Source of the DNA: Promethearchaeia archaeon
GTDB taxonomy: Archaea > Asgardarchaeota > Lokiarchaeia > Sigyniarchaeales > SOKP01
Reading direction: 5' to 3'
DNA: 15,236 nt
Assembly: GCA_029856105.1 (NCBI GenBank)
Contig: JAHQWH010000215.1
Location: 1-15,236 of the forward strand
Positions 1 to 15,236 of the stretch are shown here, in pieces. Position numbers and translations under genes: made by a program. Positions within the stretch are counted from its first letter, which is position 1, and each line of letters opens with the position of its first letter. The notes beneath the pieces are model-generated. The model saw only the letters and a program-made list of their open reading frames with translations. It was not told the origin of the DNA and did no database searches.

Positions 1-752
1 GAACCAGTTAAAAAATCTTGCTCCAGCGTAAGATCAGTAATTTCTAGAAGTAAGATTATAGCTTCATAACCTTTTGAAATGAGATATTCTTTTAGTTCTC
101 TTCCAATTTTTTTCAATAACTCCTCATCTGTAGAATAAACAGAATAATGTATAATTGCTTTTGGATTATTGATAAACTCCGACTTTTTTATAATTTCTTC
201 GTTGTCAATTATCGTCACGGTGTCCGCACCAGCAATTCTGGCGATCTTCTTAAGCTCTTCTTCTAGGGAACCAAAAGTAAAGAATTGCTTGCTTCTAGAT
301 TCTACTTTTTCTATTAGAACGCGTTCTAAATCTTCACGTGTTTTCTTGTCGTAAAAAACCGTTAACTCGTTAGAACTGATTTCTTTGTATTTACCGGATA
401 TTAAATTTTCTTTCTCATTAATGAAATCTATAATAGTTTCGTAATATTGATCGTCTAATTTTTGAAACTCCTCAACACATCTTATATAATGAGTCAGCTT
501 GTCTATTAAATCGTAATAGAATTTTAATCGAGATTTAATCCTTAACTTATCATCAATTCGTTTAATTTCGGGATAATATTTCTTTAAGATGAGATTAATG
601 CCTTTGTTACTGAGAGCGCATAATTTTGCGACCTTTTCAGAATATTTAATGGATTTATAACCAAATAATTCTAGGATATCTTGCTCCAATTTGGTGAGGT
701 CGTCAAAGACTTCTGAGATCTTATCGTTATACTTTTTCTCAATATAAGACAT
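1..752 (-). CDS. Hypothetical protein, at least 250 aa, runs off the window edge; C-terminal part resembles a degenerate QueG/reductive-dehalogenase-like domain
   Basis: Not in the ORF track. Manual translation from the ATG at 752 is open to position 1: MSYIEKKYNDKISEVFDDLTKLEQDILELFGYKSIKYSEKVAKLC...GSLEEELKKIARIAGADTVTII...NPKAIIHYSV...LLKKIGRELKEYLISKGYEAII...FLTG. The CDS is well supported; the family call is weak. Confidence 0.85.
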   Translation of the reverse strand, partial: MSYIEKKYNDKISEVFDDLTKLEQDILELFGYKSIKYSEKVAKLCALSNKGINLILKKYYPEIKRIDDKLRIKSRLKFYYDLIDKLTHYIRCVEEFQKLDDQYYETIIDFINEKENLISGKYKEISSNELTVFYDKKTREDLERVLIEKVESRSKQFFTFGSLEEELKKIARIAGADTVTIIDNEEIIKKSEFINNPKAIIHYSVYSTDEELLKKIGRELKEYLISKGYEAIILLLEITDLTLEQDFLTG

Positions 753-859: not shown

Positions 860-2065
860 TTATAAACCAACTAAGAGTGCTACGGTCATAATTGATCCCG
901 TTATTAAAGGAACTGTAAAATTGTCATTTAAATTCATTGAAAACATCTCAACTAAAGGTGCTAAGATGCCCCCTAGAATTAAAACAATCAAAGAAATCTC
1001 TAAACTAGTATAGAGTATATATCCCATAATAAGAACGCTCCCAACATAGGCTAATGTTCCTTCTAATGTCTTATTCAATATTTTATGTCTCCCAAATGCT
1101 AAACCAAAAAGCTTTCCAAATATGTCACCGTAGATTAAAAAGCATGATGCAATGAATGCTACCTCTTTCGGAAATATCAATAATGTAATAAATAAGGCAA
1201 CAAAAAAGATGGTGAATGACGAAAATGTTTTAATTTCATTTTTCCTAAGTAAAGCTTTAACTTTTGTCTTCAATACCTCATTTGTTTTTTTATGCATCAA
1301 TCTAAAGATATCAAATGCTACCAAAACTAGAGTCACACTACCAAGTATGTATAAAGAAGGAACTTTAGTGAAAATACTATAAGATATTAAAAAAATAATC
1401 GCAAATGGTCTTATCGCAACACGCCACCAATATATCTGAAAATTCGTGTCTTCTATCTTAAATTTACCTTCTTTTAAGATATTATAAATACCAATCGTGA
1501 TAATGTGCACAAGTATGATCCAAAAAAAGAGGTTATATTGATTATCAGGGAAATTAATGTATACTGAATATCCAAGTAAGGGAAGCACTATTACACCTAA
1601 AAGATTCCCTATTTTAGAAATATAAAAAAAAAGTGCGACAAGAAGAAGTAAATAAAAAAGAAAGAAGAAAAACTCCGGTTTGATCGTGAAATAATTCACT
1701 AAATAAAAAAGAAACATTCCCATTGCAGTGGCCACTCCCTGACCGCCTCTAAATCTCAAATAGAATGGAAATACGTGACCTACGATTGTCATCAATCCAC
1801 TTAAATGAGCCACAACAACGTTAGTTCCTAAGCTTAATGTTATTAGTATAACTAACAACCCTTTAAAAATATCAAATATGGCTGTAGGGATCCCATATTT
1901 CGCCCCTAACATCTGAAATGTATTTGTTGTTCCTGCGTTTTTTGAACCAACTTCCCTTATATCGATTTTTTTTAGTCTCCCAAAAATATAGGCAGGATTA
2001 ATACTACCAAAAAAATAACCAAATAATAAACTTAATATGCTAATCATAATTTCTAAGGGTTCCAT
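860..2065 (-). CDS. plsY: PlsY-like glycerol-3-phosphate acyltransferase domain (aa ~1-200) fused to a CTP-dependent dolichol/phytol/diacylglycerol kinase-like domain (aa ~210-401); copy 1
   Basis: PlsY motifs: GYFFGSINP, DIREVGSKNAGTTN, DIFKG, GHVFPFYLRFRGGQGVAT. Kinase motifs: LRKNE, GDIFGKLFGLAFGRHKILNKTLEGT, NDNFTVP. Highly hydrophobic. TGAGG/AAGGA lies upstream of the ATG. Confidence 0.85.
   Translation of the reverse strand: MEPLEIMISILSLLFGYFFGSINPAYIFGRLKKIDIREVGSKNAGTTNTFQMLGAKYGIPTAIFDIFKGLLVILITLSLGTNVVVAHLSGLMTIVGHVFPFYLRFRGGQGVATAMGMFLFYLVNYFTIKPEFFFFLFYLLLLVALFFYISKIGNLLGVIVLPLLGYSVYINFPDNQYNLFFWIILVHIITIGIYNILKEGKFKIEDTNFQIYWWRVAIRPFAIIFLISYSIFTKVPSLYILGSVTLVLVAFDIFRLMHKKTNEVLKTKVKALLRKNEIKTFSSFTIFFVALFITLLIFPKEVAFIASCFLIYGDIFGKLFGLAFGRHKILNKTLEGTLAYVGSVLIMGYILYTSLEISLIVLILGGILAPLVEMFSMNLNDNFTVPLITGSIMTVALLVGL
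876..1003. repeat. Direct repeat copy A (3' end of fusion gene 1); partner at 2268-2395
   Basis: Manual ungapped alignment with 2268-2395 gives 6 mismatches in 128 nt. Confidence 0.9.
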
Positions 2066-2221
2066 TCCTTATCCTCAGGTTTGATTCTTTTCTTCTGTTA
2101 GTTTTTTTATAACGCATGAATATCTACATTTTAATACATATTTATCTTGTATTTAGTGATATTTAAATTTTAGTCGGATAAAAATCATAGAAAAATTACT
2201 CTGTTAAGTATAATAAAAATA

Positions 2222-2243
2222 ATAAAAAAAGAAAAAATTTTTT
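2222..2243 (-). terminator. Putative oligo-T terminator after fusion gene 2
   Basis: The minus strand reads AAAAATTTTTTCTTTTTTTAT shortly after the stop codon. A similar T-rich tract follows gene 1 (~829-850). T-tracts are common in this AT-rich DNA, so support is limited. Confidence 0.4.
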
Positions 2244-2251
2244 ACGGCTTT

Positions 2252-3460
2252 TTATAGACCAAACAATAGTGCTACTGTCATAATTGATCCCGTTATTAAA
2301 GGAACTGTAAGATTGTCATTTAGATTCATTGAAAACATTTCAACTAAAGGTGCTGAGATACCCCCTAGAATTAAAACAATCAAAGAAATCTCTAAGTTAA
2401 TATAAAGAAAGTATCCCATAATAAGGACGCTTCCCGCATATGCTAGCGTACCTTCTAAAGTTTTATCCAATATTTTATGCCTTCCAAATGCTAACCCAAA
2501 AAGCTTACCAAACGAATCTCCGAATATCAGAAACGATGAGGCTATAATCGCTACGTTTTTTTGAAATAACAATATAGTTATAAACATCGCAACTAAGAAG
2601 ATAGTCATTGACGAAAATTTTTTAAATTCGGTTTTCCTTAATAGAGCTTTAACTTTTGATGCTATTAATTCATTTGCTTGTTTACTCATAAACCTATAAA
2701 TATCAAATACTATAAAAAATAGCGCTACGATACCAATTAATTGCAATGTAGTTATTTGCGGGTAAAACACGTAAAATATTATAAACAAAATCGCGAATGG
2801 TCTTATGGCTACCCGCCACCAATGAGCCTTAAAAGTTTCTTCTTCAATCTTGATTACCTTCCCTTTTATCATATCATAAAAAGTAACAGACATATCATAA
2901 GCTATTACTATCCAAAAGAAGATATTATAAGGGCTTTCAGGATAATAAATAAAAGCAGTATATCCGAGTAAAGCAAGTACAATGAGCGCGATTATTACTC
3001 CTGTTCTAGTAATGTAAACAAAGATCACAATTATAAAAATTAAATAGCAAAAAAGAAAAATAAGCATTTCGGGACCAACAAGAATATAATTTAATAAATA
3101 AGCAAGTAAGATACCTGAAGTACAAGCCATTCCTTGACCACCGCGAAATTTAATGTAAAATGGAAAAACGTGTCCCGCAATAGCAGCTAAACCACTTAAT
3201 TGCGCGAAGACAAAATCAGCTCCCATACTCAGCGCTATGAAAATAACAACTATACCTTTAAAAAAATCAAAAATACCTGTAGGTATAGCAAATTTAAGTC
3301 CTAAATTATGATAAGTATTTACAGTGCCAGCAATACCGTCACCTTTCTCTCTTATATCGAATTTTTTTAATCTACCAAAAAAATAAGCCGGATTTATCGA
3401 ACCTATAAAATAGCCTATAATTATAACTAAAATATTTATTGTAATTGTAAAAATCTCCAT
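2252..3460 (-). CDS. plsY: PlsY-like acyltransferase fused to a CTP-dependent lipid kinase-like domain; copy 2 (tandem paralog)
   Basis: GYFIGSINP, DIREKGDGIAGTVN, DFFKG, GHVFPFYIKFRGGQG; GDSFGKLFGLAFGRHKILDKTLEGT, NDNLTVP. Collinear with copy 1 over its full length. GTGAGG RBS-like element at 3464-3469. Confidence 0.85.
   Translation of the reverse strand: MEIFTITINILVIIIGYFIGSINPAYFFGRLKKFDIREKGDGIAGTVNTYHNLGLKFAIPTGIFDFFKGIVVIFIALSMGADFVFAQLSGLAAIAGHVFPFYIKFRGGQGMACTSGILLAYLLNYILVGPEMLIFLFCYLIFIIVIFVYITRTGVIIALIVLALLGYTAFIYYPESPYNIFFWIVIAYDMSVTFYDMIKGKVIKIEEETFKAHWWRVAIRPFAILFIIFYVFYPQITTLQLIGIVALFFIVFDIYRFMSKQANELIASKVKALLRKTEFKKFSSMTIFLVAMFITILLFQKNVAIIASSFLIFGDSFGKLFGLAFGRHKILDKTLEGTLAYAGSVLIMGYFLYINLEISLIVLILGGISAPLVEMFSMNLNDNLTVPLITGSIMTVALLFGL
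2268..2395. repeat. Direct repeat copy B (3' end of fusion gene 2); partner at 876-1003
   Basis: Same alignment, offset 1392 nt. Confidence 0.9.
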
Positions 3461-3490
3461 AAGTCCTCACTTTCTTTGATAAAAATCTTG

Positions 3491-3557
3491 TTTCCACGGA
3501 AATTATATTAAAAATTATTTTGTGATTAATAGCTCACAATCTATGTGACTATTGATC
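3491..3557 (-). promoter_or_regulatory. Putative promoter/operator region of fusion gene 2
   Basis: TATA-like TTTTAATATAA (minus strand, ~3504-3514) is flanked by the palindrome TTTCC-AC-GGAAA (3491-3502) and an imperfect inverted repeat at 3524-3557. Confidence 0.35.
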
Positions 3558-3603
3558 CTATTTTTAATTTTATTTAAATTTTAAGCAAACCAAAAACCAA
3601 GAA

Positions 3604-5352
3604 TTAATGATAAAAATATAAAAACCGCTCCATATAATACAAAAAAATCTGGTTATAATAACCTGAAAAATAAAAATCGCTTGCGTGTCCGCCTAATAAC
3701 ATCCATAATATAGCACATTCATAATTTCCTTCAGCTAAATAGGTATTTCTAAAATTATTTGTTATACTAAAATAATTAAGAATATCATGGGTACCTTGGA
3801 AAATTAAACACGGTGGACTATCTTCTTCAATAAGCTTTTCAGGATTTTTAAACTCTTCTTTTCCATCAATTCCAAAATACACCATTTGACCATTTGCGGG
3901 ATAGAATGGGATTAAACCTTTTATTGTTAAATTTTGACTAAAAATATCCGTATAATTTCCGCTTGCTATTGCTAAAGCCATAGCAGATGCAAGATGGCCC
4001 CCAGAAGATCCCCCACTAACAAATACAGAGTCTAATTTAGCGCCGTATTCATTTGCGTGTTCAGCAAGGTAAATCGTGAATATGCCAAGATGACGCATCA
4101 TATCATCGATATTAAAATCGCCCTTATTATAATCAGGTGTACTAGGATCAACAAAAGGCATCCCTCCGTCAAATAATCCGTATTGTATGTCAAATACTAT
4201 GTATCCTTGAGCTGCAAAATATTTATTCATCTGCATCATGTTCATATGTCCTTTATCCCCAGAAACCCACCCACCGCCATGTATCCTAATAATAGTTGAA
4301 TTTTCTCCAGGAAGGTTTCTCCCTCGATTTAATGGCATATAAGCATCAAAATATAGGTTTATTCCTTCGCCTTCATAAAATAAAGTTTGCTCTTCAATAT
4401 TACTGATTTTAGGAGGAATTCCTAAAAAATAACCTGGAATTGAAAAAGTAGTTTGTAAAAAATAATTGTTTACTTCAACGGGGATTTGTTCCCGCCAATC
4501 TTGACCAAACATTTCTATAAACCTCTTCTCAGCATTAAATACTATGGAATGAGTTAAAAAAAAAGGCATCATACAAATCCCAGAAATTAGAATTCCAATA
4601 AATGCTGTTCTATAATATTTTTTAGGATTCCATTTTTTCTTTTTTAATTTTAATTTTAAATATATAATTGTATTTGCCAAAAATATAAATGAAAAGAATG
4701 TCCCAAATTGAGGTGTAAATAAAACGATACCAGTTGTCATTATTTCAAATACACCAAATAATACATTAATCGCAAAAATAATACCAATAATAAAAATTAC
4801 CCGCGAAAGAATCAGAAAAATTTTATACAATATTTCTTTAGCTCTAATAATTTCTGTAGATTTGATTCCTTCAAACCTTTTTTTAAATACCCAAAAATTT
4901 TTGTTTTTGATGTTTTTAATATCAATTAATCCTATAAAAAAACCAAAAACTAAAATGCCAAAATAAGAAAAATAGGTTGTTAAATATGCTCCAAAATTTT
5001 CAATTCCTTCATTTGAATATGTCACAGAGGTAGATAAATTACCTGACATCAAACTTAGCATAGCAAAAATCATAAAAACTAAATAAAAATAACAAAGTAA
5101 GCTCGTTCTTTTTCCTAATCTATTCGAATTATTAATTTTATCCAAATTAAGATATACAAGTAAAAGATTGACAAATAGACTTATTAACAAAATAACCCCA
5201 AAAACATCCCATAAAAAAGAATATAAAGGTTTTACTATGTAAACTATGCCTAAAATAATACTAGCTAAATTTAAGACTACTGATAAGTAACTAACATTTT
5301 TGATAGTAATAATTTCAATAATTTTATTTAACTTGTTTTTAAAATCTATCAA
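3604..5352 (-). CDS. Polytopic membrane-anchored alpha/beta hydrolase (HSL/family IV lipase-esterase)
   Basis: About 7 hydrophobic segments in the first ~270 aa, then IHGGGW (oxyanion hole), GGSSGG (nucleophile elbow), QGTHD (acid) and GGHASD (His). TTG start, exact start uncertain. Confidence 0.9.
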   Translation of the reverse strand: MIDFKNKLNKIIEIITIKNVSYLSVVLNLASIILGIVYIVKPLYSFLWDVFGVILLISLFVNLLLVYLNLDKINNSNRLGKRTSLLCYFYLVFMIFAMLSLMSGNLSTSVTYSNEGIENFGAYLTTYFSYFGILVFGFFIGLIDIKNIKNKNFWVFKKRFEGIKSTEIIRAKEILYKIFLILSRVIFIIGIIFAINVLFGVFEIMTTGIVLFTPQFGTFFSFIFLANTIIYLKLKLKKKKWNPKKYYRTAFIGILISGICMMPFFLTHSIVFNAEKRFIEMFGQDWREQIPVEVNNYFLQTTFSIPGYFLGIPPKISNIEEQTLFYEGEGINLYFDAYMPLNRGRNLPGENSTIIRIHGGGWVSGDKGHMNMMQMNKYFAAQGYIVFDIQYGLFDGGMPFVDPSTPDYNKGDFNIDDMMRHLGIFTIYLAEHANEYGAKLDSVFVSGGSSGGHLASAMALAIASGNYTDIFSQNLTIKGLIPFYPANGQMVYFGIDGKEEFKNPEKLIEEDSPPCLIFQGTHDILNYFSITNNFRNTYLAEGNYECAILWMLLGGHASDFYFSGYYNQIFLYYMERFLYFYH

Positions 5353-5675: not shown

Positions 5676-6527
5676 TTACCAGCGGAAGGATTTAATGTCA
5701 CTTAGTTTTTTTAGCATTTCTTTTGACAGATTTAATCGGTTATAAGTTAAGTCTAAGCTCTCTAAATAACTTAAATCCCCTATTGAATCAGGTAGAGAAT
5801 CTAAACCACAGTCGAACAAATAGATTCCGGTAACGTGCTTGTTTTTAACCGTGAAGCACGGAGCTAAATGAAGATCTAATTCATCAACTAAGTAGAAGTT
5901 CTTCTTGTCGTACTCAAATAGATGGCTCTCTATTTCTAAAAGGATTTCAGCCTCCTCAGGAACCAAAACTAAAAACAAAAGCTCTTCGCTGTTAAGATAA
6001 CGAGTATAGCCTTCTTGTACCAGATATTCCACGACAGGAGGATAACCGCTTTCGAGCCGTTTGGCAATCTCTTCTTTTAAGACTTTCTTTGCTTGAGGAT
6101 CCCCGCCTTCCGCGAGTTTCTTTAGCAAGCTAAACGCTAAATTAGAATGTAATAGTCGCGTATCGTAGTTGTGTTCGTACCAAACTTGCAAGTTCGAACA
6201 GTGTCCCCAAAATTCCGTTTCGGGAGAGAGGTTATAATTAATTCCATCTATTTTTATTTGACCATCTTCATCCCATCCCAATTTGTCTGCAGCTTCGTCT
6301 ATCGAATCGAGTTCGTCGGTATCGCGGATTCTATCGATTGGAACGTTTATCAATAAGAGTTTACACGACATAAACGATTCTCCGTTAACGTAAATAATAG
6401 TATCCCTCCAGACCAATTTTACGGTTAAAAACTCGTTAACCGCGAATTCTTTTGGTTTCATCTTCGCATTCGTTTCATCTTCATTTGTTCGTAAATTATT
6501 ATAGATAGCAGTAATATTTAAATCCAT
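5676..6527 (-). CDS. Leucine-rich-repeat-associated protein of a Lokiarchaeia-type expanded family
   Basis: N-terminal domain EFAVNEFLTVKL...TIIYVNGESFMSCKLLL...EFWGHCSNLQVWYEHNYDTRLLHSNLAFSLLKKL, which I recall as recurrent in Lokiarchaeia hypothetical proteins. C-terminal LRR: LFDCGLDSLPDSIGDLSYLESLDLTYNRL. The true start may be the ATG at 6461 (MKPKEF). Confidence 0.75.
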   Translation of the reverse strand: MDLNITAIYNNLRTNEDETNAKMKPKEFAVNEFLTVKLVWRDTIIYVNGESFMSCKLLLINVPIDRIRDTDELDSIDEAADKLGWDEDGQIKIDGINYNLSPETEFWGHCSNLQVWYEHNYDTRLLHSNLAFSLLKKLAEGGDPQAKKVLKEEIAKRLESGYPPVVEYLVQEGYTRYLNSEELLFLVLVPEEAEILLEIESHLFEYDKKNFYLVDELDLHLAPCFTVKNKHVTGIYLFDCGLDSLPDSIGDLSYLESLDLTYNRLNLSKEMLKKLSDIKSFRW

Positions 6528-6656: not shown

Positions 6657-7580
6657 TTATACCAGCTTCAATTTTATCTGTTTGGAGCGGCTTCGCAATG
6701 TAACTTCTGTAACTTTAGCTACTCCACTTACTTCTGCTTGTGTTTTTCGGCAGTTACTTGATTTTGCCGCCATGTAAATAACACTTGCCGCTAAGCCTTT
6801 TGGGTCTTTTCCTGTGCGCATTAATCCGTTTTTTGAAGCTTCTGAGAGCATGTTGATTGCTTTCTTTTGGACTTCCATAGGCAAATCTAAATCGTTGCCG
6901 AACCGAAAAACGAGCTGTTCTGCCGTGATTGGTTTATACCGTAAATTTAGTTCGGGTAATACTTCTTTTACAATCATGCCTAAGCTCCTGTGGACAGTTC
7001 TACGGGGAGTCATTGAAGCGTCGCACACTTCTTCCAACAATCGTGGAAATTCGTGCACTCTGATCGCGGCGTATAATGAGGCAGCAATGAAACCATCAAT
7101 TGACCTTCCCATCGTTAATTTCTTCCTAGCCACAAGGCTATAAATCTTCCAAGCTGTTTCTTTAATGTACTCAGGGATATTCATCTTAGATGTGAGCATC
7201 TTCAACTTAGGTTTAGCTTCCCAAAAGTTTCTTTCTATGCTAGAAATTAGAGAATTCTGAATTTTTGAAAGCCTGGAGAACAAGGTCTTTCCTTTTGCGT
7301 TAATTAGTCGTCCTTTTGAATCGATTTTGGAGTTTGGTAACATAGTTCTTGGACCAAATTCTCTCCATCGCGGTTCAGTACGCCTACGCTTGTTAACTTC
7401 TTCGATGGTATAGGCTCTCCTTTCATTTCCTACTAAATTTCTACTTTGAATCATTCCACAGTTTAAACAAACAACATCGCCATCTTTCGATTCAATACAA
7501 GGATTCTCGCAACACTCTTCTGCGACACCGTTCTCATCTGAACTAACCTTTGTAGATCGTAGGCGGTCTTTATATGACAT
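6657..7580 (-). CDS. tfb: Transcription initiation factor IIB (TFB) family protein
   Basis: N-terminal Zn-ribbon (GDVVCLNCG), two cyclin folds (GRSIDGFIAASLYAAIR; GKDPKGLAASVIYMA) and a C-terminal HTH (KTQAEVSGVAKVTEVTLRSR). Confidence 0.95.
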   Translation of the reverse strand: MSYKDRLRSTKVSSDENGVAEECCENPCIESKDGDVVCLNCGMIQSRNLVGNERRAYTIEEVNKRRRTEPRWREFGPRTMLPNSKIDSKGRLINAKGKTLFSRLSKIQNSLISSIERNFWEAKPKLKMLTSKMNIPEYIKETAWKIYSLVARKKLTMGRSIDGFIAASLYAAIRVHEFPRLLEEVCDASMTPRRTVHRSLGMIVKEVLPELNLRYKPITAEQLVFRFGNDLDLPMEVQKKAINMLSEASKNGLMRTGKDPKGLAASVIYMAAKSSNCRKTQAEVSGVAKVTEVTLRSRSKQIKLKLV

Positions 7581-7990
7581 ATTTTTTCACTTCTTATTGT
7601 TAATAATGTATTTTTTGCAACATATTTTAATGATTATTCAATAATAATAGCGAATATCGTAAATTATAATATTGATGTTTTTGAATTATAAGTTTTTTGA
7701 CAAATTTGTTACTTATAATCTTATCATTATATTGCTAATATACTAATAAGTTACACCACTATTTAAAAGTGTTTTTGTTTAGAATTGTTATATGCGACAG
7801 AACATGAAAAAGTGTGAAATTTGCGGGTATATAATGGGAAGAGCACCAACTTATTTTTTATAAATTGACCTTTATAGAATGTTTTTCTTTACTTTTATTT
7901 GGGAATTTTTTTAAGATATTATCGTGAATCTGATTGTTATAGAATTATATCGTCGAACTGTATAGTAAATTATTGAATTGTCGTTCAAAT

Positions 7991-9046
7991 TTAATCTTCA
8001 ATATTTTTAAATTTAAGTAAGTTACTTGCGCTCTCATGGAAAGTTTTCTCAATATTGTAGCCAGTTAACGCAGAAATTTCGATGTAATCAAGGTCTAACG
8101 CGAGAGCGAGTCTAACCGCATCCTTCTCGCTTACAATTCTTTCTTTCACCAAATCGTTCTTATTACCAATAAGATAACCTTTAATCTTTTGATCATTTTT
8201 AAAATAATTTTTTATATCCTGATGCCATTTTGGAACATTTGCAAAAGACATTGGGTTGGTAAAATCAAACAGTAAAAGAATCATGCTCATTCCTTCATAA
8301 AACTTCTTCCTTATGATCTCAAACTTAGTTTGTCCTCCAATATCCCATAATACTAATTCAACAGAGTTTTTATCAATATCAAAGATTTTCTGAGTAATAT
8401 TTAAACCCATTGTGGGGATGTATGCCCTAAGGAATACGTTATCAGTGAATCTAAGAATTGTAGATGTCTTTCCAACGCTGGGGTCTCCTAGTACTACTAC
8501 TTTAAATTTCCTTTTTTCTAACTGCTTTTTTTCTAACTTTTTAACCTCAAGTGTTTTTTCGGAAGGTTCTTCCGGCTTAGAAACATACTCGCTTTTAGAA
8601 CATAAATAATCGGTTAAATCGCATAGCGTACGCTGTAACTTAACGATCTCCTCGTAGATTAAATCTTCTTTCGATCCATTATTCTCAAAGTCGGTAATTA
8701 CGCTAACAGCTTTGCTAACGTACGAATCAATATAACTCATATATCTGTAATAAATATGATCGTCTTTTTCATCGAATAAAAAGGTTATAGCCGACTTTGA
8801 AAAACCCCCTATTTTAGTACTATCTTCTCTTTTAAAATATTTAATCAATACTTTTAACTTTAAAGGTGAAATAGGAAAAATTAAGAGAACTTCAGGGATG
8901 AAAGTTGAATCTCCTGATATAATTGAAAAACATTCGTCACCGATAAATCTTCGGATTCCTTCAGGAAGATCGTGTGGATACCAAAAGTTAATCTTTGGCT
9001 TATCTTGGTTCAAATCAAGATAAATAATTGCGTGCGCTAATTCCAT
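7991..9046 (-). CDS. Rab-like Ras-superfamily small GTPase with a ~150-aa N-terminal (probably longin/uDENN-like) domain
   Basis: G1 GDPSVGKT, G2 YIPTMG, G3 LWDIGGQ, G4 GNKND, G5 EISAL. No C-terminal Cys prenylation motif. The fold of the N-terminal domain is inferred. Confidence 0.92.
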   Translation of the reverse strand: MELAHAIIYLDLNQDKPKINFWYPHDLPEGIRRFIGDECFSIISGDSTFIPEVLLIFPISPLKLKVLIKYFKREDSTKIGGFSKSAITFLFDEKDDHIYYRYMSYIDSYVSKAVSVITDFENNGSKEDLIYEEIVKLQRTLCDLTDYLCSKSEYVSKPEEPSEKTLEVKKLEKKQLEKRKFKVVVLGDPSVGKTSTILRFTDNVFLRAYIPTMGLNITQKIFDIDKNSVELVLWDIGGQTKFEIIRKKFYEGMSMILLLFDFTNPMSFANVPKWHQDIKNYFKNDQKIKGYLIGNKNDLVKERIVSEKDAVRLALALDLDYIEISALTGYNIEKTFHESASNLLKFKNIED

Positions 9047-10515: not shown

Positions 10516-11397
10516 CTATAATGTGTTAAAAACATCGCCCATATAACCCCAAGTTTTTAGAATTTGTTCCGCCTCGTTAATTATATTGTCAATAAATTCT
10601 TTTAACGGTAATATTTTATCCACATGCCCTATCGCCATTGACGCTATAGGTGAATCTTTTAGTTCAAGATGAAATATTTTTTTGTAATATTTCTCGTCAA
10701 ATATATCTTGATTTAATACCTGAGCTTTCCATCTTTTTGAAGCGGGACTCTCTTCTGTGGCTATAATTGAACTTCCTAAACATACAGCATCTGCCCCCAT
10801 CGCTAATGCGCCAAGAAATCCTCTAGCATCTCCAATCCCTCCCGCAGCAATAATTGGAATATTTAGCAACCTACGCGCCATTGTAATATTTACTAAGGTT
10901 GTGTTTTGGTTAGGGTTTTTAAATCCAGTTCCCTCAAGACCTACAAGTGTAATGGCGTCCGCCCCTCTATTTTGGGCCGCCATTGCGTGTTTCATAGTCG
11001 TACATTTATGAAACCAATAACAACCAGCGTCCTTAATTTTTTTTCCTAAATGTGGTGTTTGGTAAGCAGAAGTCGTGAATATCTTAATTCCCTTCTCAAT
11101 TGATATATCCAAAAAATCATTGTAAGATTGTTCAGTTTTCCCACGCCCTTTTTTTGCAAGATAAGGTGGTGTAATTGTAAAGTTTACTCCAAAAGGTTTT
11201 TTGGTAAGTTTAGACATTTTTTCAAGTTCCTTTTGAAAATCTTCGATTGTAGGGTAATTTATTGCAGTTATTATTCCTAAACCGCCTGCATTGGAAAATG
11301 CGGCTGCAAATTCAGCACAACCAATCGCTGCAAAGGCACCCATTATTATCGGGTACCTTACTTCCGCCATTTGGGTTATTTTAGTTTTCCAAATCAT
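10516..11397 (-). CDS. Nitronate monooxygenase / FabK-like FMN-dependent TIM-barrel oxidoreductase
   Basis: YPIIMGAF, AAAFSNAGGLGII, KPFGVN, IPIIAAGGIGDARGFLGALAMGADAVCLGS, ATEESPA. Confidence 0.88.
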   Translation of the reverse strand: MIWKTKITQMAEVRYPIIMGAFAAIGCAEFAAAFSNAGGLGIITAINYPTIEDFQKELEKMSKLTKKPFGVNFTITPPYLAKKGRGKTEQSYNDFLDISIEKGIKIFTTSAYQTPHLGKKIKDAGCYWFHKCTTMKHAMAAQNRGADAITLVGLEGTGFKNPNQNTTLVNITMARRLLNIPIIAAGGIGDARGFLGALAMGADAVCLGSSIIATEESPASKRWKAQVLNQDIFDEKYYKKIFHLELKDSPIASMAIGHVDKILPLKEFIDNIINEAEQILKTWGYMGDVFNTL

Positions 11398-11562
11398 AAC
11401 TTTTTTGTTTTTTAATATTATGATATTGATAAAAAATACAAATTTTTATTTTTTTTCCTTTTCTATGTTTAATACAGTAGTAAAAATTTCTAAAAATGAT
11501 TTTTTAAATAATAAAAAAACCATATTTAATATGAAAGTGGGATAAAAGATTAACTGAAACTT

Positions 11563-11985
11563 GTGGTACTCGTGCCTAAAATATTAAAAGATTTGTGGAT
11601 TCTTACTGAAAATGGAGTGGTTTTATTCTCAAGAGTTTTTGATCAAACAATTAATCCCCAACTTTTTGGTGGTTTGATGAGCGCTTTAAACACTTTTGCC
11701 GAAAAACTTACTGAAGGAGGGATATCTAACTTCGAAATGTCGGATCTTCGTTTTGTAATTGTAAAACGAAGAAGCTTTCTATTTATTGGGAGTTCTTTAA
11801 ACAAGACTAAAGAGAAAAAAGTGATTGATGAATTAAAGCTAATATCCGACATGTTTTTTGAAGTTTATAACGAAATATTAGTAAATTGGGATAACGATGT
11901 GAATTATTTTTCTGATTTTGGCGACCATATTGATAAATCTTTAGAAAAACAACCTGTCAAAAACCTGAAAGATGCTTTTTGGTAA
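11563..11985 (+). CDS. Small stand-alone longin-like domain protein (Asgard-type)
   Basis: Pattern LWILTENGVVLFSR / LFGGLMSALNTFAEKL / ISNFEMSDLRFVIV / FLFIG / two C-terminal helices fits the longin beta-beta-alpha-beta-beta-beta-alpha-alpha topology. Start is GTG at 11563 or 11572. Confidence 0.7.
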   Translation: MVLVPKILKDLWILTENGVVLFSRVFDQTINPQLFGGLMSALNTFAEKLTEGGISNFEMSDLRFVIVKRRSFLFIGSSLNKTKEKKVIDELKLISDMFFEVYNEILVNWDNDVNYFSDFGDHIDKSLEKQPVKNLKDAFW

Positions 11986-12079
11986 AAAAAAATCTTTTTA
12001 TTTTTATAACCATAAAAAATTTAAGAACGAAATGATATTAAAAACATGAGCAAAATAAAATAGGTTAGATATACATCAA

Positions 12080-12412
12080 ATGAGCGATAGTAATAATAAA
12101 CTCGATAAAGTGCCAGATAAACCTCATGTAATAAGAGATTATGAAGATATTCTTAATAATAATAAATTAAATCTCTTTCCTACAAGTAATCATAACGCTC
12201 ACCTTAAAAGCTTAACAACACCTCAATTTTTAGGCTCTTATCACCTTAAAGAAGCAATAAATTCTAAATATAACTCAATTAATACATTGTTAAAAGGGGA
12301 TATAGACGTAAAATACGCAAAAGCCTTAAGAGGTACAATTTTAAACCCCGTAACTATAGCTCTGATTATTATAGCATTGGTATTTAATGTTATGTGGTTT
12401 TTTTTTGTCTAA
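12080..12412 (+). CDS. Hypothetical tail-anchored membrane protein
   Basis: Hydrophilic ~88 aa followed by a single terminal hydrophobic helix (PVTIALIIIALVFNVMWFFFV-stop). Fills the gap between co-oriented genes. Confidence 0.7.
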   Translation: MSDSNNKLDKVPDKPHVIRDYEDILNNNKLNLFPTSNHNAHLKSLTTPQFLGSYHLKEAINSKYNSINTLLKGDIDVKYAKALRGTILNPVTIALIIIALVFNVMWFFFV

Positions 12413-12567
12413 TTATGAAAGCGAATAAATATGGGCTTAATAAATTTTCTCCTATTAATGATACTTATCATAGAAAATATTAATGTTCCAAATAAATTTT
12501 AAAGAAATAACTTGTTTTATTACTTAAGCTTTTTAATTCACTCTTTAAAATTCGAAAGGTAAATCCC

Positions 12568-14040
12568 TTGACAGTATATGACATTATAATTATTGGAGGC
12601 GGTGTTATTGGTTGTTGCATCGCACGAACTTTATCAAAGTACGATCTTAAGGTTGCTTTATTAGAGAAGGAGGCAGATATAGCTTCAGGCACTACTAAGG
12701 CTAACTCTGGAGTCGTACACGCGGGTTATGCGTCACCAAGAGAATATGTTAAGCGGGATATGTGTATAAAAGGGAATAAATTATATACTCAAGCTGCAGA
12801 AGAGTTAAATTTTCCTTTTCAAAGAATTGGTTCTTTTGTTGTCGCTTTGGAAGATAGTCAGATAAAAAAACTTGAGGAAGAAAGAAAACTAGCTACTCAA
12901 GACGGAGTTCCAGGCTTAGAATTAATTTTAGATAAAGAAAAAATTAAGTACATGGAACCTAATCTTACAGATGAAGCAGTTGGCGTATTACACGCCCCAT
13001 CGGCAGGAATCGTAAGCCCATATGAGATGACTTACGCGTTAGCTGAAAATGCAGCTATGAACGGCGTTAAATTCTTCCGGAACCAAAAAGTAAGACGAAT
13101 TAAGCATCAAAATTACGTATTTGTGATTAAAACTAAAACAGATGAATTCAAATCTAACAACGTAATTAATGCTGCTGGATTATATGGGTTAAAGATTTCA
13201 AAAATGGTAGGTCTAGATTACTTCAAACTAATGCCTAGAAAAGGAGAATATATCCTTTTTGATAGGAACGCAATGCACCTAAATAAAATTTTATTTCCTA
13301 CGCCCACTAAAGTATCTAAGGGAATTTTAGTATGCCCAACTGTTAGTGGAAATACTTTTGTTGGTCCTAATGCTCTTAATATTACTGATAAAAAAGATAT
13401 TGCGACTACTGAAGCTGGTTTAAAGGAAATTTTAGAAGGGGGTAATAAATTAGTTCCTAATATGCCGGTAAGGGCTTCTATTAGAAATTTTGCGGGTTTA
13501 AGGGCAATACCAGGTACCTATGATTTCATTATTGATAGCACTGATGTATATGGTTTTATTAATGTAGTTGGCATCTTATCTCCTGGTTTAACGTCATGTT
13601 ATGCTATTGCTGAAAGAGTTGTAGAATTTCTGGAATTATTAGGAGCAAACACTAAAATTAAGGAAGATTATAATCCTATGCGCCCAAAACCAGAAAGGTT
13701 TAAAGATTTCACTAAGGAAGAATTAGACAGAAAAATAAAAGAAGATCCTGCGTGGGGAAGAATTATTTGTCGGTGTGAAAATATTCCAGAAAAAGAAATT
13801 CTTAATGCCATACACGCACCTGTAGGTGCGACCACCGTGGACGGAGTTAAGTTCAGATGTAGACCTGGTATGGGACGTTGCCAAGGTGGATTCTGTCGCC
13901 CTCGTGTTATTGAGATTCTGTCTAGAGAATTAAATATTCCCTATGAGGATGTATTGAAAAGGGGAGAAGACACAAACTTTCTTGTGGCTAAAACGAAAGA
14001 AATTGCGCTACTTCGTTTAAAAAGGGGTGAAAATGAATGA
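12568..14040 (+). CDS. glpA: FAD-dependent oxidoreductase with a C-terminal BFD-like [2Fe-2S] domain; probable glycerol-3-phosphate dehydrogenase (GlpA/LhgO family)
   Basis: IIGGGVIG, GTTKANSGVVHAG, PRKGEY, FAGLR, GILSPGLTS, ICRCE...GMGRCQGGFC. TTG start. The substrate is inferred from family and gene pairing. Confidence 0.8.
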   Translation: MTVYDIIIIGGGVIGCCIARTLSKYDLKVALLEKEADIASGTTKANSGVVHAGYASPREYVKRDMCIKGNKLYTQAAEELNFPFQRIGSFVVALEDSQIKKLEEERKLATQDGVPGLELILDKEKIKYMEPNLTDEAVGVLHAPSAGIVSPYEMTYALAENAAMNGVKFFRNQKVRRIKHQNYVFVIKTKTDEFKSNNVINAAGLYGLKISKMVGLDYFKLMPRKGEYILFDRNAMHLNKILFPTPTKVSKGILVCPTVSGNTFVGPNALNITDKKDIATTEAGLKEILEGGNKLVPNMPVRASIRNFAGLRAIPGTYDFIIDSTDVYGFINVVGILSPGLTSCYAIAERVVEFLELLGANTKIKEDYNPMRPKPERFKDFTKEELDRKIKEDPAWGRIICRCENIPEKEILNAIHAPVGATTVDGVKFRCRPGMGRCQGGFCRPRVIEILSRELNIPYEDVLKRGEDTNFLVAKTKEIALLRLKRGENE

Positions 14041-15236
14041 AGAAATATAAAGCGGACGTTGTAGTTATAGGCGCTGGAGCGGGTGGGCTTGCAGCAGCTA
14101 TAGAAGTAAAAGAAGCGAAGCTAAGCGTTTTACTTATCGAGAGAGACAAAGAATTAGGAGGGATAACCTTACAATGCATCCATAATGGATTTGGTTTGAA
14201 AGAATTTGAAGAAGAATTAACAGGTCCGGAGTACGCTCAAAGATTCATAAATAAAGTAATTGAAAAAAAAATCCCCTACATATTGGATACAATGGTATTT
14301 GAAATTACTAAAGATAAAAAGTTATATGCAGTGAACAAAAAGGAAGGTTTAATTGAAGTTGAAGCGAAAGCAATTATCTTAGCGATGGGTTGTAGGGAAA
14401 AAACGAGAGGAGCGATTAATATTCCAGGATTTCGACCTGCGGGTATTTATACTGCTGGGCAAGCTCAAAGATTTGTTAATATCGAAGGGTATCTACCCGG
14501 AAATACTTACGTGATTTTGGGAAGTGGAGATATTGGAATGATAATGGCTCGGAGATTGACTTGGGAAGGTTGTACAGTTAAGGCTGTGGTGGAAATTCAG
14601 CCTTATGTAAGTGGATTGCTTCGAAATCAAGTTCAATGCTTAGAAGATTACGGGATCCCCCTGATAACGAGCTATACAGTAACTAGAATCCACGGAAGAG
14701 ATCGCATAAAAGGAGTTACCATTTCAAAAGTAAGCCGAAACTTTGATAGAATAATAGGTTCAGATAAATTCATTGAATGCGACACTTTGTTATTATCTGT
14801 TGGGTTAATTCCTGAAAATGAGTTAACGCTGCAAGTGGGTGCTGAATTATCAAAAAACGGAGGACCTGTAGTTGATGAGAATTTAGAAACTACCATCGAT
14901 GGTATATTCGCTTGTGGAAATGTATTACAAGTTCACGATTTAGTGGATTTGGTAACTGCTGAGGCTAAACGAGCTGGAAAAAACGCAATAGAATATATAA
15001 ACTCGAGGTATAGCAAAGAATTAAAGAAGAAGGAAACAATTAAATGTATCCCTGGCGAAAATGTAAATTACGTTAAACCAGATATTATCAACAAGCGAAA
15101 TTTATCAGAAGAAATAATTTTTACAATCAGAGTTAAATATCCCGATAGAAGGGTTCTTATTCAATTTAAAGACGAAAATAATAGCATAATATATAAAAGA
15201 AAGAAAATTTACGTCATCCCAAGTGAAATGCTTGAA
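14037..15236 (+). CDS. NAD(P)/FAD-dependent pyridine nucleotide-disulphide oxidoreductase, partner subunit of the GlpA-like enzyme; runs off the window edge
   Basis: Not in the ORF track. The ATG at 14037 overlaps the upstream TGA (ATGA), with AGGGGTGA RBS-like sequence at 14023-14030. Translation: MKKYKADVVVIGAGAGGLAAA...IERDKELGGITLQCIHNGFGL...LTGPEYA...LAMGCREKTRG...VILGSGDIGMIMARRLTWEG...GIFACGNVLQVHDLVD; open to the end of the window. Confidence 0.92.
   Translation, partial: MKKYKADVVVIGAGAGGLAAAIEVKEAKLSVLLIERDKELGGITLQCIHNGFGLKEFEEELTGPEYAQRFINKVIEKKIPYILDTMVFEITKDKKLYAVNKKEGLIEVEAKAIILAMGCREKTRGAINIPGFRPAGIYTAGQAQRFVNIEGYLPGNTYVILGSGDIGMIMARRLTWEGCTVKAVVEIQPYVSGLLRNQVQCLEDYGIPLITSYTVTRIHGRDRIKGVTISKVSRNFDRIIGSDKFIECDTLLLSVGLIPENELTLQVGAELSKNGGPVVDENLETTIDGIFACGNVLQVHDLVDLVTAEAKRAGKNAIEYINSRYSKELKKKETIKCIPGENVNYVKPDIINKRNLSEEIIFTIRVKYPDRRVLIQFKDENNSIIYKRKKIYVIPSEMLE

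Follow-up and report, generated by a model that had tools for sequence, protein, structure and literature searches.

In bacteria, the incorporation of exogenous fatty acids begins with a secreted lipase. The fatty-acid kinase FakA/FakB then acts ahead of PlsX/PlsY, as outlined in PMC10146087. We analyzed a locus of a Promethearchaeia archaeon (Asgardarchaeota; Lokiarchaeia) that recalls this route. In a stretch of 15,236 nt (GenBank assembly GCA_029856105.1, contig JAHQWH010000215.1; hereafter the window), a gene coding a membrane hydrolase is followed by two genes coding fusions of a PlsY-like acyltransferase domain with a kinase-like domain (fusion A and fusion B). A system made of these three genes would follow the same logic as the bacterial one, that is, ester hydrolysis outside the cell, formation of an acyl-phosphate, and PlsY-type transfer, and a true FakA-FakB-PlsY operon as in the bacterial route was found in another Asgard family. 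Unlike in the bacterial route, neither FakB nor PlsX was found in the genome that carries the locus, the kinase would be an unrelated, membrane-embedded enzyme of CTP type, the acceptor pocket of the fusions is not that for glycerol 3-phosphate (G3P), and the partnership with the esterase gene is not fixed.

Each part of the three proteins has described relatives. The catalytic domain of the hydrolase shares with family IV, or HSL-type, esterases (Thermogutta terrifontis Est2, 5aoc and 7bfn; Lactobacillus rhamnosus esterase B, 4n5h) an alpha/beta fold (Z 25, rmsd about 3 Å over about 250 residues), an HGGG oxyanion motif, a GxSxG nucleophile elbow, and a Ser-Asp-His triad. The known family IV esterases are soluble proteins of 260-320 aa, whereas the hydrolase has an additional conserved N-terminal domain of about 270 aa with seven transmembrane (TM) helices and no detectable relatives, and its predicted topology has the catalytic domain outside the cell. 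The C-terminal domain of the fusions has in common with CdsA (4q2g), of the CTP-transferase-1 superfamily, the core GD..A...G..FGR.K....KTLEG; the domain of the fusions, with about 200 aa, is the shorter of the two, and its Pfam score is below the cut-off. The same superfamily also contains dolichol kinase Sec59/DOLK, phytol kinase VTE5, and diacylglycerol kinase Dgk1. With bacterial PlsY, as described for Aquifex aeolicus in passages of PMC5700162 (5XJ5-5XJ9), the fusions share PF02660, the 7-TM fold, and the phosphate hole made of His92 and the GGxG loop-3; they differ in that the residues of the G3P clamp and of the 2-OH contact are replaced and a second membrane domain is fused.

PlsY homologs of Lokiarchaeia have been cited as hints of bacterial-type or hybrid Asgard membranes, which bears on the 'lipid divide' and on the origin of eukaryotic membranes (passages of PMC6737245, PMC9385802, and PMC13400652). 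The passages on Lokiarchaeal PlsY in these three papers and in PMC6431249 make no mention of a fusion or of an altered acceptor pocket. We found that the hydrolase and the two fusions are probably three separable membrane-enzyme genes in a long syntenic block rather than a dedicated three-gene system, with at most a loose functional link among them.

Gene neighborhood of the hydrolase and the fusions

All three genes are on the minus strand. The hydrolase gene (5352..3604; 582 aa, TTG start) codes the 7-TM domain followed by an HSL/BD-FAE esterase domain. It ends 143 nt upstream of fusion A (3460..2252; 402 aa), and after a further 186 nt fusion B (2065..860; 401 aa) follows. These open reading frames (ORFs) are exactly the co-oriented ones of an earlier sequence-only reading, which had joined them into a lipid salvage or remodeling system. 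Fusions A and B are tandem paralogs with 61% identity. Homologs were found in the hundreds for the hydrolase and for the fusions, indicating that both are real genes and not chance ORFs.

ORFs were called and clustered in 40 fetched neighborhoods, and the combined maps gave 42 genomes with readable context; left out were G006, G009, and G033, where the locus was cut or in a different context, and G202 and G243, where the contig ended at the hydrolase or TFIIB gene. The conserved backbone ran from GlpO, in the opposite orientation, through LarA and TFIIB to one to four fusion genes, a gene for a protein of 250 aa, and ProRS, with Ras (after LarA) and the hydrolase (before the fusions) as variable members.

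The hydrolase gene was placed immediately before the fusion in 11 of the 42 genomes, all 11 being congeners. A second order, hydrolase, TFIIB, fusion, was found in 6/42 (genus g18 and look-alikes), so that TFIIB is on either side of the hydrolase depending on the genus. The other 25 had no hydrolase at the fusion locus; their ortholog was in another setting or was not found. The order of fusion, 250-aa gene, and ProRS was more constant than that of hydrolase and fusion: it was present in 26 of 29 mapped loci, the remaining three ending at a contig edge, and the 250-aa gene was the most faithful neighbor of the fusion. Because the whole region is syntenic, the adjacency of hydrolase and fusion does not stand out, and it is no better conserved than that of TFIIB and fusion or of fusion and ProRS. 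Conservation of the neighborhood across relatives, which the sequence-only reading had proposed as a check, thus did not go beyond this background synteny.

On the hydrolase tree, the basal split of which was weakly supported, the adjacency to the fusion needs as few as one change, suggesting that it was inherited and not re-selected. A tree of ProRS alone, built to see if the adjacent-type genomes group together as a clade, was noisy and incongruent, and was set aside. In one genome with both fusions intact (G028; L008/L049, C49:10374-12112), the hydrolase ortholog (93% identical) contained stops and a frame change in the TM region, reflecting either pseudogenization or an error of assembly.

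The two genes also differ in distribution. The hydrolase family was present in 53/61 genomes, far more widely than the fusion. When 79 fusion loci were searched by tblastn with the hydrolase, matches were obtained at five, all from Promethearchaeota, and no homolog was found near the fusion at the non-Promethearchaeota loci (64 of the 79 scanned). Likewise, no alpha/beta hydrolase was among the 62 neighbor proteins at 25 non-Asgard fusion loci.

The hydrolase

Residues 336-490 of the hydrolase matched the Pfam family BD-FAE (PF20434) with 67 bits (cut-off 26.8), and Abhydrolase_3 (PF07859) was matched with 34.8 bits (cut-off 25). In an alignment of 39 homologs with 47-92% identity, H358-G359-G360, S449 in G447-x-S449-x-G451, D523, and H556 were invariant in 39/39, as were N105 and Q215 within the TM domain; the fourth glycine of the HGGG motif was read from the window sequence. 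The corresponding codons are at 4281..4270 (HGGG), 4008..4006 (Ser449), 3786..3784 (Asp523), and 3687..3685 (His556). The GGSxGGH and GTxD motifs align with T. terrifontis Est2 (TtEst2), and the serine and aspartate match those of that enzyme.

A hydropathy scan found seven TM segments ahead of the catalytic domain, in agreement with the helices of an AF2 model (pLDDT 88.7, pTM 0.89). The catalytic domain of the model was superposed on HSL-type esterases with Z 25.0 and rmsd 2.9-3.3 Å over 244-255 residues (VIA), with a Foldseek E of about 4e-9, and the top matches were TtEst2, L. rhamnosus esterase B, and other HSL-type esterases. Pfam matches, invariant residues, TM segments, and fold thus all agree with the sequence-only description of a membrane hydrolase of HSL type with about seven TM helices and an intact triad. 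The TM domain (residues 1-267; 4552..5352) had no Pfam family, and a search of Protein Atlas returned only sub-threshold scores of 0.80 or less.

The side on which the catalytic domain lies was predicted from the distribution of charges. Loops 0, 2, 4, and 6 contain 27 lysine and arginine residues and loops 1, 3, and 5 contain one. By the positive-inside rule, this places the N-terminus inside and the catalytic domain (residues 310-582; 3607..4425), which is acidic with 35 D+E against 18 K+R, outside. We concluded that the protein is a family IV (HSL/BD-FAE type) serine carboxylesterase, most likely one that acts on substrates of the cell surface or the exterior. The 7-TM domain would hold the catalytic domain at the outer face of the membrane, where it would cleave ester bonds. 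The facing side, which the sequence-only reading had left to topology prediction, is thus predicted to be the outer one, and an esterase domain in this predicted position, with short-chain carboxylesterases and carbohydrate esterases as structural relatives, weakens the functional link to the fusions.

The Z scores of short-chain esterases, carbohydrate esterases, and lipases as fold matches differed by only a few units, so the fold does not name a substrate. The hydrolase may be an envelope-maintenance enzyme unrelated to the fusions. In the role of an ecto-deacetylase or de-esterase, it would act on glycans, glycoproteins, or lipid-linked intermediates of the cell's own surface, with the 7-TM domain docking it to a membrane-bound substrate or partner. 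The predicted outside position and the wide distribution of the family fit such a role, and the best Pfam match, BD-FAE, is a family of feruloyl and acetyl-xylan esterases; the carbohydrate esterases 6xyc, 6mly, and 7dwc were about 2-4 Z units behind the top HSL esterases. Where the hydrolase ortholog (57-60% identity) is away from the fusion locus, it occupies one of three other conserved settings, and in one of these, present in seven genomes, it is near one to three tandem genes for Acyl_transf_3 membrane O-acyltransferases. In 6/7 of these genomes (L035-L042, e.g. L041:9266-10078), the hydrolase gene is convergent to a gene for an Rce1-like CPBP intramembrane protease. The Acyl_transf_3 genes are, however, on the opposite strand and one or two genes away from the hydrolase, the setting is itself lineage-specific, and the hydrolase has no glycan-binding module. 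We regard a role in envelope maintenance as quite unlikely.

Paralogs of the hydrolase with about 40% identity exist in a split form, as in G000:C127:1341-3033 (L002/L003) and in many relatives, in which an ORF of 150-200 aa with the first TM helices is followed by an ORF of 438 aa with the other helices and the catalytic domain. The family has one to six copies per genome.

The PlsY-like domain of the fusions

A hydropathy scan gave about 10 hydrophobic segments per fusion, so that all three proteins are integral membrane proteins, as had been stated from the sequence. PF02660 (PlsY) was matched by residues 15-186 of fusion A and 15-188 of fusion B (E 4e-29 and 6e-36; 102 and 124 bits, cut-off 24.1). 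Against the NCBIfam equivalog TIGR00023, the two scored 86 and 116 bits, below the cut-off of 137.2. The AF2 model of fusion B (pLDDT 93.6) matched A. aeolicus PlsY (aaPlsY; 5xj6) in Foldseek with E 1.7e-5 and TM 0.70 over the target.

Functional residues of aaPlsY were taken from PMC5700162 and mapped in two alignments, one by HMMER and one by MAFFT, the latter combining 57 fusions and 23 canonical PlsY of Firmicutes that came from the loci of the related-locus search. Passages of that paper describe a G3P pocket consisting of a clamp of Ser35, Arg45, Lys104, and Asn180 plus His177, and place the functional loops of PlsY in the cytoplasm. His92, which belongs to the donor-side phosphate hole, was retained in 54/57 fusions; in fusion B the hole is represented by H97 and R106-G-G-Q109-G, so that the GGxG loop-3 is also kept. 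The acceptor side was different. The residue at Lys104 was lysine in 9/57 fusions compared to 22/23 canonical PlsY. Fusion B keeps Ser35, Asn37, and Thr41, and has Q, Q, L, and G in place of R45, K104, H177, and N180, leaving one of the five pocket residues (S35). In fusion A, S35, N37, T41, R45, and K104 are replaced by D, I, V, H, and Q; the equivalents of H177 and N180 were mapped in fusion B only.

With the G3P pocket replaced, the PlsY-like domains are, as judged from their residues, not ordinary G3P acyltransferases, and since most of the clamp is lost, we infer an acyl acceptor other than G3P. The retained phosphate hole may serve a lipid-phosphate donor, from which the acyl group would be passed to this other acceptor. 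The loss of the clamp also weakens a functional link of the fusions to the hydrolase.

The C-terminal domain and the distribution of the fusions

The C-terminal half of fusion B (residues about 200-401) was matched by PF01148 (CTP_transf_1) with 20.5 bits and E 4.6e-4, below the cut-off of 24, and that of fusion A had no PF01148 match in the Pfam scan. A profile of 35 C-domain sequences matched CdsA of 4q2g (TmCdsA) with E 0.0037, and Foldseek matched the model of fusion B to the same structure with a probability of 0.77. These results suggest that the C-terminal half is a distant member of the CdsA/CTP-transferase superfamily and kinase-like. The acyltransferase half of the fusions proposed from the sequence thus scores far above its Pfam cut-off and below that of the equivalog, and the kinase half is kinase-like by a distant relationship to the CdsA superfamily only. 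The C-terminal signature of CdsA, HGG..DR.D, is not present in the C-domain sequence of the fusions, and its motifs presumably resemble those of CTP-dependent lipid kinases.

Relatives of the C-domain numbered 2423 representatives at E<=1e-3, and many of these consist of the domain alone (about 190-200 aa). Of 15 stand-alone homologs, none was assigned to a family by Pfam, no meaningful match was obtained with NCBIfam for 35 members of the C-domain family, and Protein Atlas returned only sub-threshold leads to clusters named 'phosphatidate cytidylyltransferase' (scores 0.89 or less). The genome of the window itself contains an uncharacterized stand-alone homolog of 363 aa (hhalign probability 98%). 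A fusion of reversed order (P0331, 431 aa) has the C-domain at 32-206 and PlsY at 226-390, indicating that the two domains were joined at least twice.

Full-length fusions were found in 27/36 congeners and in 0/24 genomes from other genera in a first draw of 60 relatives. Outside Asgard archaea, they were found in Eubacteriales, Aminicenantes, Actinomycetota, Thermotogae, WOR-3, Patescibacteria, Saccharibacteria, Spirochaetota, Caldisericum, and Cytophagia, and in Pace- and Woesearchaeota of DPANN; the search for related loci was run from a 16-row alignment. Each fusion is probably a pair of lipid enzymes in one protein, acquired from or shared with bacteria, in which the C-terminal CdsA/DolK-superfamily domain would use a nucleotide triphosphate to produce a lipid-linked phosphate or an acyl phosphate.

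In one bacterial metagenome-assembled genome, a gene of the acetokinase family (L065:5896-6963, plus strand) is 43 nt upstream of a fusion of PlsY and C-domain (7007-8203). Members of the acetokinase family are acyl-phosphate makers.

Kinase partners of PlsY-like domains in Asgard archaea

PlsY-like domains were present in 92/251 Asgard genomes, and were paired with three kinase types: the fused CTP-type domain described above, a fused PPDK-type dikinase, and FakA-FakB in an operon with PlsY. The second type was found in two genomes of family f2, G051 and G042 (L126:6260-9334, minus, and L127:7890-10946, plus), as fusions of about 1020 aa made of PlsY-like, PPDK_N, and PEP-utilizer dikinase domains. 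In both, co-oriented genes for a MacB-like permease and an ABC ATPase come after the fusion, and no esterase is adjacent to it. The third type is a tight operon of FakA (Dak2), FakB (DegV), and PlsY in 6/7 genomes of genus g52, which belongs to another Asgard family (L128:5088-8522, L132:4403-7858, L130:574-2967, and also L129, L131, and L133). This operon is a bacterial-type unit for activation of exogenous fatty acids in archaea. The occurrence of three kinase types with PlsY-like domains speaks for a kinase partner that provides the acyl-phosphate donor, with hydrolases as recurrent but optional companions.

Intergenic gaps and transcription

Both gaps of the locus contain promoter-like elements of their own, as the sequence-only reading had noted. 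In the gap between hydrolase and fusion A (3461..3603, minus), a T5 tract follows the stop, and the ATG is preceded by a Shine-Dalgarno-like GTGAGG motif and, at a distance of about 45 nt, by a TATA-like A/T box. The gap between the fusions (2066..2251, minus) has T-rich tracts past the stop, a TATA-like A/T box again about 45 nt before the ATG, and a Shine-Dalgarno-like GAGGA. Across 10 adjacent-type genomes, the gap between hydrolase and fusion was 98-176 nt, and comparable A/T boxes precede the fusion in genomes with TFIIB as the upstream gene.

Metatranscriptome libraries X1-X4 were represented by contigs, for which carry-over of DNA is possible and uncovered parts are uninformative. A contig of 526 nt from X1, identical to the window at 3249-3767, bridged the gap between hydrolase and fusion A. 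Contigs of a relative with 95-99% identity from X4 covered fusion A and reached 3531-3549.

A possible functional link

The bridging contig is one of several observations that weigh against three separable genes. In two genera, with two different gene orders, hydrolase and fusion are no more than about 2 kb apart. Among 47 genomes of family f1 found in both draws, the long-form hydrolase (E<=1e-100) was present in 18/25 fusion-bearing (PF02660) and 5/22 fusion-lacking genomes, a count that ignores kinship and in which whole genera lack both genes, so that it overstates the link because relatives are not independent. No PlsX (PF02504) or FakB/DegV (PF02645) was found in the genome of the window (G000, 92% complete), in which positive controls and four PlsC-type matches were found; the fusions therefore need some source of fatty acids. 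A soluble, lipase-like alpha/beta hydrolase of 264-267 aa (AHSIGG elbow, DUF676/Abhydrolase_1) is directly after 3/6 of the g52 operons. Lastly, the topology that sets the hydrolase apart from the fusions comes from a single predictor, the positive-inside rule.

These observations could be explained by a fatty-acid salvage line that is real but loosely organized. At the cell surface, an outward esterase would release fatty acids from esters, for example bacterial ester lipids. The acids would flip across the membrane and be converted to acyl-phosphates by the kinase-like domain, and a lipid or alcohol would accept the acyl group from the PlsY-like domain. Such a line would agree with the adjacency or near-adjacency in 17/42 genomes and with the pairing of PlsY-like domains with kinases elsewhere in Asgard archaea, and the same puzzle of PlsY without PlsX is raised in passages on CPR (candidate phyla radiation) bacteria (PMC7242380) and Lokiarchaea (PMC9385802). 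It would have to accommodate the 25 genomes with no hydrolase at the fusion locus, the six with a TFIIB gene in between, the bacterial and DPANN fusions, which at the scanned loci never had this hydrolase nearby, and the 7/25 fusion-bearing genomes without the long-form hydrolase at the above threshold. The nearest structures of the hydrolase are short-chain and carbohydrate esterases, and the CdsA/DolK superfamily is not known to include an enzyme that phosphorylates carboxylates. We consider this salvage line rather unlikely.

For the functional link proposed for the three genes, co-occurrence and near-adjacency in two genera are in its favor, and the strict adjacency, found in 11/42 genomes and at no scanned locus outside Promethearchaeota, is not. 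Because the adjacency is patchy and lineage-specific, a three-gene salvage system is possible but unproven, and the data add little weight to it. Separable genes remain the preferred reading: the hydrolase would adjoin the fusions in one sub-lineage only, and any cooperation, for example in the supply of fatty acids by the esterase, would be loose rather than obligatory. A more specific scheme, in which an outward 7-TM esterase strips bacterial ester lipids, the CTP-type kinase domain makes acyl-phosphates, and the fused PlsY domain acylates an acceptor other than G3P (e.g. an archaeal lipid or a lyso lipid) to give mixed ester/ether lipids, appears very unlikely.

The 'PlsY' genes at this locus are fusions with an altered acceptor pocket and the neighboring esterase is not a fixed partner; therefore, a bacterial-type phospholipid pathway, or a dedicated Lands-type cycle, is only weakly supported by these genes. 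If real, the loose link would offer a testable route of fatty-acid scavenging for Asgard archaea in syntrophy with bacteria.

Other genes in the window

The window is AT-rich, with a GC content of about 0.29-0.32 across the three-gene stretch, and Pfam matches identified Asgard-type genes for a Ras-family GTPase, a longin-domain protein, and TFIIB. The TFIIB gene (6657..7580, minus), matched by Pfam TFIIB, is the conserved upstream neighbor of the fusion locus. Downstream, the neighbor of the fusions on the ProRS side codes a soluble protein of 250+ aa, cut by the window end (3..752, minus), which had no Pfam or NCBIfam match. Between TFIIB and the hydrolase, an ORF of 283 aa (5676-6527, minus) showed only a weak LRR-like match and had no counterpart among the 40 clustered related loci.

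The same syntenic block contains genes for a FabK-like reductase of the NMO family (10516-11397), a type-2 glycerol-3-phosphate oxidase/GlpA-like flavoprotein with a BFD 2Fe-2S domain (12568-14040), and a pyridine-nucleotide disulfide oxidoreductase (14037-15236). All three (10516-15236) belong to glycerol-phosphate and lipid chemistry, are 5-10 kb from the fusions, and are conserved across two genera.

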